NCBI GenBank assembly: GCA_011364905.1
Contig: RDNZ01000025.1
Coordinates: 1 to 42,605 of the forward strand
Length of the DNA: 42,605 nt
DNA from: Candidatus Thorarchaeota archaeon
GTDB taxonomy: Archaea; Asgardarchaeota; Thorarchaeia; Thorarchaeales; Thorarchaeaceae
Direction of reading: 5' to 3'
The number at the start of each line of letters is the position of its first letter. Position 1 is the stretch's first letter. The position numbers and the translations under genes were made by a program. Positions 33,476-35,237 of this stretch are shown piece after piece. Under the pieces are notes generated by a model. The model searched no databases, was not told where the DNA came from, and was given only the letters and a program-made list of their open reading frames with translations.

Positions 33476-33516
33476 TAGTTCCATACGTTTAAACGCCCAG
33501 ACCTGTGGGATGGCGT

Positions 33517-34152
33517 ATGCAGCTTACTCCCTTCGTCAATCTCGCCTTTGTGATTGTCATTCAGGTCCTTTTCATGCAAATGATCTGGCTTTTCTTGAGT
33601 CGTCGCGCAGAGGGCTCGTATCTCGGGGACATCATGCACTTTAGAAAGCCTTCATCATCCTTGTCGAGATTCTACGACTGGCGTATCTCTAGGTTTACCA
33701 ACGCATTGATTGAGGCGATTGTCTATTTGATCATTTTACTGGCTTCGTTGATACTGGTCTCTGTCGTGTTGGTTGACTTTGCAGCATTCATGGATGCAAT
33801 CCTGTATGTTGCATTTATGGTGTTCTTGTCAGCTATCACTGCCGTGCAGATGGTTTGGCGTGTCAGAGGAATCAATGAACGTGAGGGTAGAATCCTCTCC
33901 TTGGTAAGTACAGCAACAGACAAGGTGGGTCTAGCAAGACAAATGGTGGAAGATCTCATAAGTCAGGGGCGAATGGGCGATGGACGTGTGTGGTTTGCGC
34001 TTTACAGGCTTGCTCAAAGACAGAACAGAGTCGGATGGGCCATTAGAGATGTATTGATTGAGAAGCGCAGTGATCTTAAGGAGCTGCAAAGATATTCTGA
34101 AAGCCAAGAAACTCCTACGTCGCGCGACAAGGGACCCGGGATTGAAACCTAG
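33517..34152 (+). CDS. Hypothetical 3-TM membrane protein with helical cytoplasmic C-terminus
   Basis: Three hydrophobic segments; TTTAAA about 24 nt upstream of the ATG, so probably leaderless. Confidence 0.75.
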   Translation: MQLTPFVNLAFVIVIQVLFMQMIWLFLSRRAEGSYLGDIMHFRKPSSSLSRFYDWRISRFTNALIEAIVYLIILLASLILVSVVLVDFAAFMDAILYVAFMVFLSAITAVQMVWRVRGINEREGRILSLVSTATDKVGLARQMVEDLISQGRMGDGRVWFALYRLAQRQNRVGWAIRDVLIEKRSDLKELQRYSESQETPTSRDKGPGIET

Positions 34153-34229
34153 ACTTGCTAGAGCTATTCAGTAAGTCTTATATCCAATTCCTAAGGCATT
34201 CACGAGAATCCCACTGGGAGGAACTCCGT

Positions 34230-34514
34230 ATGTCAAAGAGTGACGTTCTGAAAGGCCGCAGGGGCGTAGTCACAAGTTACCGTAGGGGAAAGCACCTACA
34301 ACATCCAAATCAAGTGATACTGATATTTGATGATGTGAAGACTAGATCTCAGGCTTCAACACTTGTCGGTAGAAAGGTGAAGTGGACATCCCCTGAAGAG
34401 AGCGAATTCCTTGGCAAAGTACTTGGCCCTCATGGTAACAGTGGTGCTGTTCGTGCAAAGTTCAGGACTAACCTTCCAGGCCAGGCCATTGGAACCCCAG
34501 TGGTTCTGATGTAG
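34230..34514 (+). CDS. rpl35ae: 50S ribosomal protein eL33 (L35Ae)
   Basis: GVVTSYRRGKHLQHPNQ...HGNSGAVRAKF..NLPGQAIG; GGAGG SD. Confidence 0.95.
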   Translation: MSKSDVLKGRRGVVTSYRRGKHLQHPNQVILIFDDVKTRSQASTLVGRKVKWTSPEESEFLGKVLGPHGNSGAVRAKFRTNLPGQAIGTPVVLM

Positions 34515-34556
34515 ACCATCACGAAGTTTTATCAGTTCATCAAACGATGCCTACTA

Positions 34557-34628
34557 GGCTCCGATGATGCAATTGGCTATCTGAGGGCAGAAATGCCCAG
34601 CGACGAGTCATAGTTAGACTGAGGAGCC
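34557..34628 (+). ncRNA. Box C/D 2'-O-methylation guide sRNA, dual guide, targeting LSU rRNA H69 and the adjacent segment
   Basis: GGCTCC/GGAGCC terminal stem; C box ATGATGC at 34564; D' CTGA at 34581; GGGCA-GAAA-TGCCC hairpin; C' GCGACGA; D CTGA at 34619; guides complementary to UAACUAUGAC(UC) and UAGCCAA. Confidence 0.85.
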
Positions 34629-34670: not shown

Positions 34671-35237
34671 GTGGTTCAGTGGTTGTTGTATTTCTCAGCA
34701 TACTTTCTCGCAGGGCTCTCGCTCAAGCTTGGTGACGACCTACTGGATGAACTTGACAGACCTCAAGCAGCATGGCTACCACTCTCTCTTGCTGGCCTGC
34801 TATTTGGTCTACTCATGACAGTGTCAGAATGGGACCTAGTTCTTCTGACCAGTATTGTGATAGGTGTCTTGGTTTCAGGAAAAGTCAATCACCTGCAGTT
34901 CGTTGTAGGGTTTGCAATGATTATTGGTACTCTGCTGATTATTGGCCTTCCAGCCATTACAAGTTGGCTGGACTGGAGTACCGTGCTCATTATTCTCTTC
35001 TTGGCAGCCGTTCTAGATGAGAAAGGGAATGACTGGGCAGATAAGGACCAATCACCGTTAGCATTCAAGATATTCAAGTACAGATTTGTACTGAAGATTG
35101 TTGTTCTCGGACTGATTATACCATGGCCAATGTTCTTTTCGACTGCAATTGGACTGTGGGTCTTTGATATTGGGTACGAGTCTGCAGGTTGGCTAATCAG
35201 ACACGGTCTTGTAGGCAAGGCTACAACAGACATCTAG
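34671..35237 (+). CDS. Hypothetical multi-pass membrane protein with Asp-rich motifs
   Basis: About 6 TM segments; KLGDDLLDE and LDEKGND motifs; 3' end overlaps the convergent radical SAM gene. Confidence 0.75.
   Translation: MVQWLLYFSAYFLAGLSLKLGDDLLDELDRPQAAWLPLSLAGLLFGLLMTVSEWDLVLLTSIVIGVLVSGKVNHLQFVVGFAMIIGTLLIIGLPAITSWLDWSTVLIILFLAAVLDEKGNDWADKDQSPLAFKIFKYRFVLKIVVLGLIIPWPMFFSTAIGLWVFDIGYESAGWLIRHGLVGKATTDI

Follow-up and report, generated by a model that had tools for sequence, protein, structure and literature searches.

A 72-nt element lying just downstream of the ribosomal protein gene rpl35ae in a Candidatus Thorarchaeota archaeon very probably encodes an independently transcribed, dual-guide box C/D small RNA (sRNA) that would direct the methylation of helix 69 (H69) and, most likely, of helix 71 (H71) of the large-subunit rRNA. 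The element occupies positions 34557–34628 on the forward strand of the window, i.e., the whole 42,605-nt stretch of DNA analyzed here, and comparative sequence data confirm it as a real and strongly conserved member of its class. It adds a well-supported and previously unannotated family of C/D sRNAs to the Asgard archaea, a group for which a shallow literature search found no papers on such RNAs, and it predicts that A1913, a position of functional importance in the intersubunit bridge helix H69, is ribose-methylated in Thorarchaeia and Heimdallarchaeia, as in yeast and human. In practical terms, the annotation of sRNAs in Asgard metagenome-assembled genomes (MAGs) gains a covariance model and a clear-cut example, together with a prediction that RiboMeth-seq can test. 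A crude scan for C and D boxes across the whole window found no second candidate C/D sRNA.

Anatomy of the Element

Read directly, the 72 nt are GGCUCC-G-AUGAUGC-AAUUGGCUAU-CUGA-GGGCAGAAAUGCCC-A-GCGACGA-GUCAUAGUUAGA-CUGA-GGAGCC, a complete box C/D sRNA to which the covariance model R1 gives 102 bits (E 8.6e-23). The terminal stem of 6 bp joins GGCUCC (34557–34562) to GGAGCC (34623–34628); it is 100% paired in 18 sequences, with one U-A/U·G change, and double changes are many in a wider alignment (A2: UGUU/AACA, GACU/GGUC, UACU/GGUA). The C box AUGAUGC (34564–34570) departs from RUGAUGA in its last base, C for A; in homologs UGAUG is near-invariant and position 1 is A or G. Its sixth base, G, pairs with the first C of the D box CUGA (34619–34622), and this pair has covaried to U-A in two genomes (G006 and G017). 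The UGA of the D box is invariant in the genus alignment, and a few D-box variants (CGGA, CCGA, CAGA) occur in the family as a whole.

The inner half of the element begins with the D′ guide AAUUGGCUAU (34571–34580), of 10 nt, or 11 nt when C34570 is counted, followed by the D′ box CUGA (34581–34584). The majority of homologs have CUGA or CCGA at this place, and one divergent subclade has the degenerate CGUA. An internal hairpin of 5 bp, GGGCA-GAAA-UGCCC with a GAAA loop (34585–34598), separates it from the C′ box GCGACGA (34600–34606), which is degenerate and retains both GA dinucleotides. Since farther homologs bear a canonical C′ box (AUGAUGA or AUGACGA), the form found in the window would be a derived variant. 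The D guide GUCAUAGUUAGA (34607–34618) measures 12 nt, and its position 5, counted from box D, lies opposite the A1913 equivalent. The D′ spacer of 10–11 nt compares with 11–12 nt in relatives and with about 12 nt expected for the class.

Kink-turns (k-turns) of known geometry are formed by C/D motifs and by U4 RNA, and this geometry served as the template for reading both box pairs. The terminal motif shows the 6-bp canonical stem, a 3-nt bulge (GAU), the G·A and A·G pairs, a U·U pair and the G6-C1 pair, and the internal motif shows the D′ box CUGA, the stem GGGCA/UGCCC, a bulge (AGC), the G·A and A·G pairs, a C·U pair and a G-C pair. As the hairpin closes the C′/D′ geometry completely, the internal motif can be read as a true, full k-turn, as opposed to the k-loop that is common in archaeal sRNAs.

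Conservation, Covariation, and Distribution

BLAST against 40 relatives recovered full-length copies with 72–100% identity; of the 24 genomes belonging to the same genus, at least 21 have one. The guide cores are invariant or nearly so. Within an 18-sequence genus alignment (A1), the proposed pairs are paired in 99.6% of cases, vs. 21–50% when the partners are slid against each other. Compensatory changes occur there at four pairs, three of them in the internal hairpin and one in the k-turn, where C-box G6/D-box C1 becomes U/A. In the hairpin, three of the five pairs vary on both sides (G-C/A-U/G·U, C-G/U-A and A-U/U-A/C-G), and 98.9% of the alignment cells remain paired.

Of 70 syntenic Thorarchaeota loci retrieved via the neighboring deoxyhypusine synthase gene, 63 contain the element according to model R1. 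The relatives with this gene go by the name Candidatus Thorarchaeota, apart from a few labeled Promethearchaeota or Hermodarchaeota, and the assignment of the host to the Asgard archaea is correct. R1 also matched 25 of 26 sampled genomes of the family and the one sister-family genome sampled (1/1), and gave weak matches in 7 of 13 genomes of family f5. One genome (G022) carries a copy that is 100% identical to the sRNA between flanks of about 76% identity, which argues for purifying selection on the sRNA. When 185,579 species genomes were scanned with a structured pattern, 63 stretches matched, mostly from Thorarchaeota and from records of related Asgard or uncultured archaea. The others came from two complete Heimdallarchaeum genomes, one Methanogenium MAG, one Woesearchaeota MAG and about 20 bacterial genomes. 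The bacterial matches are taken as chance background, and the Methanogenium and Woesearchaeota matches were rejected because they do not resemble C/D sRNAs.

These data bear on the reading of the element as a chance resemblance with no RNA gene behind it. No Rfam family reached its gathering score anywhere in the window, a permissive scan yielded only sub-threshold matches, to SNORD83 at 19.7 bits and to SNORD46 at 15.9 bits (E 1.1), for which gathering requires 40, and the minimum free energy z-score of the isolated sequence is just −2.4. Against chance stand the deep conservation, the compensatory changes, the invariant guides and the conservation of the sRNA beyond that of its flanks; comparative data in practice refute this reading, which is left with a next to negligible probability.

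Genomic Context and Transcription

The element begins 42 nt past the stop codon of rpl35ae (34227–34514, forward strand), which codes for ribosomal protein L35Ae of 95 aa (Pfam PF01247, E 1.3e-20); farther upstream, on the opposite strand, the window has the deoxyhypusine synthase gene. The arrangement recurs in other Asgard genomes, where the preliminary description had suggested looking for it: about 90 of 100 homolog loci have the L35Ae gene upstream on the same strand, mostly at a distance of 40–60 nt. Between rpl35ae and the sRNA stands a putative archaeal promoter (34521–34534, forward strand), composed of a BRE-like, purine-rich ACGAAG and of the TATA-like UUUUAUCA (34527–34534). The center of the latter falls about 26 nt before G34557, and about 26 nt is the usual distance from TATA box to transcription start in archaea. 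Among 72 distinct homolog sequences, 49 have a motif of the TTTAT[C/G/T] type that starts exactly 29 nt before the stem, and in 59 it lies 26–32 nt upstream. In G022, an ORF for a 142-aa membrane protein is inserted between rpl35ae and the sRNA; an intact unit of promoter and sRNA follows the insertion, and a degenerate remnant of the promoter and of the 5′ end of the sRNA is still found beside rpl35ae.

Judged from the position-conserved TATA-like box and from the G022 unit, the sRNA very likely has its own promoter and forms an independent transcription unit, as opposed to being obligatorily co-transcribed with rpl35ae. The preliminary description had favored co-transcription with rpl35ae, a view that does not fit well with a BRE/TATA-like box fixed at −29 and kept also in copies that are apart from rpl35ae. 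It is unlikely that the sRNA is mainly processed from a read-through transcript of rpl35ae, in the manner of eukaryotic snoRNAs housed in ribosomal protein genes. The shared strand, the 42-nt distance, the synteny in about 90 of 100 loci and the lack of an obvious strong terminator between the two genes are what such processing would lead one to expect. However, the motif at −29 in 49 of 72 homologs would make transcription start with the first base of the stem, the promoter-plus-sRNA unit of G022 is intact beyond the inserted gene, and the Heimdallarchaeum copies do not adjoin rpl35ae.

The D Guide and Helix 69

The host genome is an MAG, 81% complete and in 95 contigs. A whole-genome Rfam search for LSU rRNA did not find its 23S rRNA, of which a DNA search later located a 3′ fragment of 569 nt where contig C51 ends; this fragment covers the H88 region, without H69 and H71. 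Five same-genus genomes with a full 23S rRNA served as reference for the pairing of the D guide. Their H69 reads GGGA-CUAACUAUGAG-UCUC, in which the loop-closing pair (E. coli G1910-C1920) is C-G, the reverse of its orientation in the usual GAGUAACUAUGACUC. On this rRNA, D-guide positions 2–11 form 10 contiguous Watson-Crick pairs with CUAACUAUGA, and position 5 faces the second A of UAAC, precisely the nucleotide that the preliminary description had proposed. When the guide of each genome is set against its own H69, 9–10 bp are formed in all 12 genomes having both the sRNA and 23S rRNA. As 20 of 21 23S sequences of the family share CUAACUAUGAG, the case for this assignment in the host, if indirect, is a strong one.

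The guide itself is under comparable constraint. Its core UCAUAGUUA does not vary among the 18 sequences of the genus alignment, and the single exception in the family, an A-to-G change in G163, is still G·U-paired. In a shuffle test restricted to Watson-Crick pairs, 9 of 1500 shuffled D guides (0.6%) reached 10 such pairs running through position 5 anywhere in 16S and 23S rRNA; a first shuffle test with G·U freely allowed was uninformative (225/2000 for D, 1838/2000 for D′). A scan of the 23 tRNAs detected in the incomplete MAG gave no credible tRNA target. Position 2 of the guide is G, opposite the lineage-specific C of CUAAC in the clade of the window. The notion that this G tracks the lineage-specific C1910 everywhere was rejected, since it holds in 7 of 12 genomes and the other 5 have A there and pair over 9 bp.

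The predicted target of the D guide is thus well supported, by rRNA complementarity in relatives, as the A1913 equivalent (yeast A2256, human A3739) at the tip of H69. The known pseudouridines of E. coli H69, at positions 1911, 1915 and 1917, place the target at A1913. To anchor the numbering, the Thor 23S region was compared with E. coli genomes by BLAST, which gave no match, and the numbering was for this reason drawn from the E. coli row of the alignment of Dennis et al. (2015) together with those pseudouridines. In yeast, Am2256 is guided by snR63 and lies 2 nt before pseudouridine 2258, the counterpart of 1915 (PMC2794176).

The layout of the preliminary description stands, every element being found where it had been placed, but its duplex with UAACUAUGACUC, reaching into the C′ box, does not. 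The 23S rRNA of the genus reads CUAACUAUGAGUC, not GUAACUAUGACUC, and so the duplex would be that with CUAACUAUGA (positions 2–11) instead of UAACUAUGACUC, the target nucleotide being unchanged. The UAACUAUGACUC pairing corresponds to the eukaryotic form of the rRNA.

The D′ Guide and Helix 71

On comparative sequence grounds, the target of the D′ guide is probably the C1934 equivalent in H71, 21 nt downstream of the A1913 equivalent, an assignment that is ambiguous in the host genome. With the H71 strand GUAGCCAA, the guide forms 8 contiguous bp, including one G·U, with the C1934 equivalent at position 5, and then meets an A×A mismatch at position 9. The match extends to 10 bp in G088, in G163 and in variants with an extra U; the variants with a single-U insertion pair with GUAGCCAAAU. 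Across the family, the core UGGCUA of the guide is invariant or near so and its 5′ part is variable, and this core is complementary to the invariant UAGCCA of H71.

An unbiased scan pointed to a second site. In the 23S rRNA of G017, the D′ guide of the window pairs with AUAGCCAAUUGU at 12 of 12 positions (11 Watson-Crick and one G·U), in the loop that caps a variable hairpin, presumably H88, located just 5′ of GACAGAAAAGUUACCCC (the 3′ strand of H74). This hairpin sits opposite E. coli ~2395–2424 in the alignment of Dennis et al. (2015). The corresponding loop of the host, AUUGCCAAUUGU, pairs at 11 of 12 positions (10 Watson-Crick and one G·U), with 8 contiguous Watson-Crick pairs at positions 4–11 and a U×U mismatch at position 3, and GCCAAUUG is widespread in the H88-type loops of the family. 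The H71 and H88-type sites are near-identical octamers, GCCAAAUG vs. GCCAAUUG, which differ by one base, so cross-matching is expected. The D′ guide of the window is a hybrid in this regard, its positions 1–3 fitting H71 only and its position 9 fitting H88 only. Scored against the rRNA of their own genomes, the guides make runs of 6–10 bp with H71 and, in the 10 genomes scored for H88, of 4–10 bp with H88; the longer run is with H71 in 5 of these 10 genomes and with H88 in 2 (G153, 10 vs. 8 bp; G071, 9 vs. 7 bp), and the two tie in 3 (G000, G009 and G017). Several other rRNA matches of 7–8 bp exist for the D′ guide of the window. The C1934 equivalent, originally put forward as the D′ target, accordingly keeps its plausibility with 8 bp (one G·U) and loses its uniqueness, the H88-type loop of the host being matched equally well.

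Two other readings of the D′ guide have to be weighed against the H71 assignment. In this subclade the guide may target the H88-type loop, instead of or besides H71, and methylate the first C of GCCAAUUG, in which case the sRNA would bridge domains IV and V of the rRNA. The pairing with the G017 loop at all 12 positions and with the host loop at 11 of them, the better match of the own loop in G153 and G071, the spread of GCCAAUUG through the family and an A at position 9 that suits H88 and not H71 make this possible, if on the unlikely side. In the host, however, the U×U mismatch falls two nucleotides from the target; guide positions 1–3 (UAU) are conserved where the loop bases vary (AUA, AUU, AAC, UUU, CUG, UCG); the run drops to 4–6 bp in 5 of 10 genomes, when that with H71 is never below 6; the two sites differ by a single base, so that cross-matching is expected; and positions 11–12 are part of the C box. 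It is rather unlikely, too, that the D′ guide is decaying or is a mere pairing (chaperone) arm in the host, with D as the sole active methylation guide. A best conserved site of just 7 Watson-Crick pairs and one G·U, the 7–8-bp matches elsewhere in rRNA, a spacer of 10–11 nt instead of 12, the degenerate C′ box and the CGUA box of the divergent subclade would suit decay, and archaeal second guides are often orphaned or decayed, with 28% of guides in Pyrobaculum (PMC6009581). Yet the family-wide invariance of UGGCUA argues for continued selection, and close relatives with one extra U make 10 bp at H71.

H71 is favored as the conserved target of the family because guide positions 1–6 are conserved and the matching bases of the H88 loop are variable, because the variants with one inserted U attain 10 bp with GUAGCCAAAU, and because the D′ guides of the Heimdallarchaeum relatives are aimed at AAUGCCUUG on the same H71 strand. 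Neighboring dual targets are moreover a common archaeal pattern, about 45% of Pyrobaculum sRNAs having two targets at most 100 nt apart (PMC6009581), which also speaks for H71. There is a smaller possibility that the D′ guide of the window serves both look-alike sites, H71 and the H88 loop.

Machinery and Predicted Mechanism

The host genome codes for the proteins of the archaeal box C/D machinery, i.e., Nop5 (G000:C55:5571-6248; PF01798 Nop, E 3.7e-64), fibrillarin, whose gene adjoins that of Nop5 (C55:6379-7047; PF01269, E 1.5e-85), and L7Ae (C64:9955-10233; PF01248, E 1e-26). The features by which an archaeal box C/D sRNA is recognized are found together: a C/D k-turn with its stem, a C′/D′ k-turn, spacers of about 12 nt, and L7Ae, Nop5 and fibrillarin in the host. 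An rRNA complementarity of at least 9–10 bp with a Watson-Crick pair at N+5 is found for the D guide on the 23S rRNA of relatives; the D′ guide makes 8 bp at H71 and has H88 as an alternative.

From this anatomy, the covariation, the rRNA complementarity in relatives and the host machinery, we infer the course of transcription, RNP assembly and methylation. Once transcribed, the sRNA would be bound by L7Ae at its terminal C/D k-turn and at its internal C′/D′ k-turn, and a Nop5 dimer and two copies of fibrillarin would then assemble on it. Positions 2–11 of the 12-nt D guide would pair with the H69 loop 5′-CUAACUAUGA-3′, and fibrillarin would 2′-O-methylate the nucleotide opposite position 5, the A1913 equivalent. 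The D′ guide would most likely pair with the neighboring H71 strand GUAGCCAA and select the C1934 equivalent. Held at both sites, the sRNA would clamp the H69-H71 region during assembly of the 50S subunit.

Comparison with Known Guide RNAs

Related copies are found in other Asgard archaea. The same type of sRNA is present in Ca. Heimdallarchaeum endolithica (CP084167.1) and Ca. H. aukensis (CP084166.1), and also in family f5. The Heimdallarchaeum copies resemble that of the window in the register of the D guide (AUCAUAGUUAGG followed by CUGA), in the internal hairpin between D′ and C′, and in a D′ guide aimed at H71. Their own 23S rRNA has CUAACUAUGAG in H69, with which the D guide forms the same duplex of 10 bp; their C box is canonical and their C′ box reads AAUGACGA. 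Unlike in the window, the nucleotide singled out by their D′ guide GCAAGGCAUUG is the G of AAAUGCC (E. coli 1940), which follows the Thor site by 6 nt and lies in the target AAUGCCUUG of the H71 strand; their terminal stem is weak or absent, and rpl35ae is not adjacent. The exact pattern AAGGTAGCCAAATGCC was not found in Heimdallarchaeum, since H71 reads GGUAGGCAAAUGCC there.

Guides for the same site have been published from the Thermoproteota. Dennis et al. (2015, BMC Genomics 16:632; PMC4644070) cataloged 489 archaeal C/D sRNAs and predicted H68, H69 and H71 to be methylation hotspots in archaea, with a high density around A1912; Sac-sR113 of Sulfolobus acidocaldarius and IHOsR91 of Ignicoccus hospitalis were detected by RNA-seq (PMC4644070, Additional file 1). 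Both are dual-guide sRNAs like that of the window, with D guides CUCAGAGUUACU and AUCAGAGUUACG, respectively, each followed by CUGA, and, as read here from the published sequences, position 5 of each faces the second A of (G)UAAC, in the register of the window. On the other hand, their guides follow an H69 loop that reads CUCUGA vs. CUAUGA, Sac-sR113 is shorter and has a short D′-C′ linker in place of the 5-bp hairpin k-turn, and the D′ guides of both differ from that of the window, with no detectable sequence homology beyond the boxes and the guide. Because the likeness is confined to a guide constrained by its target, it is compatible with common descent and with convergence alike. The element is well established but unexceptional within a class of RNA already known, the archaeal box C/D sRNAs, given that Sulfolobus and Ignicoccus already have published guides for the site.

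In eukaryotes, SNORD46 (RF00218) and yeast snR63 select the same rRNA nucleotide in the same register as the D guide of the window, namely Am3739 of human 28S rRNA (printed Am3749) and Am2256 of yeast 25S rRNA (PMC2794176). The consensus D guide of SNORD46, GUCAUAGUUACA followed by CUGA, differs at position 2 from GUCAUAGUUAGA, likewise followed by CUGA; this position faces the base preceding UAAC, which is G in eukaryotes, where the SNORD46 consensus guide has C, and C in Thor and Heimdall. The match rests on the boxes and on a stretch of 10 identical guide nucleotides, and the selection of the A1913 equivalent, which follows from the register, is a functional likeness only, the SNORD46 covariance model giving the element 15.9 bits where 40 are needed for membership. 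Unlike the sRNA of the window, the eukaryotic RNAs are longer (~100 nt and ~255 nt), intronic or independently expressed, and nucleolar. SNORD46 and snR63 are not known to have an assigned second target.

The preliminary description had gone further and seen in the element a link to eukaryotes, as a possible snoRNA precursor. Neither the SNORD46 score nor the occurrence of the same guide register in Sac-sR113 and IHOsR91 upholds this view: with guides at the same position in Sulfolobus and Ignicoccus, the likeness does not establish a special link between Asgard archaea and eukaryotes. That the Thor and Heimdall H69 guide is a direct vertical ancestor-type (ortholog) of SNORD46 and snR63, and not a convergent RNA, is very doubtful. 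Were it true, the eukaryotic Am1913 guide would go back to the Asgard ancestor of eukaryotes, and the hairpin-closed internal k-turn and the linkage to a ribosomal protein gene would prefigure the organization of snoRNAs. As predicted from the guide sequences, the A1913-equivalent site is common to Thermoproteota, Asgard archaea and eukaryotes, and its guide would be either ancient or recurrently evolved in archaea.

Organization of the sRNA locus

In the window, the pair formed by rpl35ae and the box C/D guide RNA (sRNA) is flanked by two hydrophobic ORFs on the forward strand, one of 215 aa (33505-34152) and the other of 188 aa (34671-35237), for neither of which a Pfam family was found at E values up to 0.001. 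In the related genome G022, about 550 extra nt separate rpl35ae from the sRNA (locus L007:860-1500, contig G022:C3) and carry a hydrophobic ORF of 142 aa. There, rpl35ae is adjoined by degenerate remains of the promoter and of the 5′ part of the sRNA, and an intact copy of promoter plus sRNA is located further on. The additional ORF-bearing stretch, together with the coexistence of a degenerate remnant and an intact copy, suggests that this locus has undergone a duplication or an insertion. Another relative, G024, bears an intact sRNA copy that does not adjoin rpl35ae, as well as a truncated 5′ copy about 1.6 kb away from it (L072:1650-1682 and G024:C203:20287-20318), in which the C box, D′ guide and D′ box are fused directly to the 3′ stem.

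The homolog found in G025, a member of the sister family (L136), is 63 nt long and has a D′-C′ linker of only 3 nt, i.e., of the k-loop type; not every member of the order therefore has an internal k-turn closed by a hairpin. Its G6-C1 k-turn pair, formed between the C box (AAUGAUU) and the D box (AUGA), is replaced by U-A.

23S rRNA of the host and its relatives

A 569-nt 3′ fragment of the host 23S rRNA is encoded on the minus strand at a contig end (G000:C51:16295-16863; L173:496-1064). The excerpt containing this fragment scored 455 bits by cmscan, and the fragment was not reported by the Rfam LSU search of the whole host genome. The loop-closing pair of H69 (G1910-C1920 in E. coli) was compared among 23S loci that included L042-L046, from the same genus, and L237-L239, from Heimdallarchaeum and G028. 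In Thorarchaeota the pair is inverted to C-G (in 20 of the 21 23S sequences of the family), and Heimdallarchaeum likewise has C-G; in six further genomes of the same phylum, from different families (L036-L041), G...C is retained or replaced by other forms, and G100 has A-U. The 23S rRNA of G009 (L046, G009:C21:17991-21852) reaches about 3.86 kb, compared with about 3.1 kb in relatives, and its divergence begins directly 3′ of CCCCAGGGGUAA, at about position 2150 of the locus, near the peptidyl-transferase-centre strand. This extra length and the site at which divergence starts suggest an intron or another insertion in the rRNA gene.

Comparison with a known archaeal sRNA

The Ignicoccus sRNA IHOsR418 (Dennis et al., 2015, PMC4644070, Additional file 1) includes UGAUGCAAUUGGCUAC, which is near-identical to the C box and D′ guide of the window, UGAUGCAAUUGGCUAU. 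The alignment of that study places IHOsR418 near H71, but the register implied by its box spacing differs.
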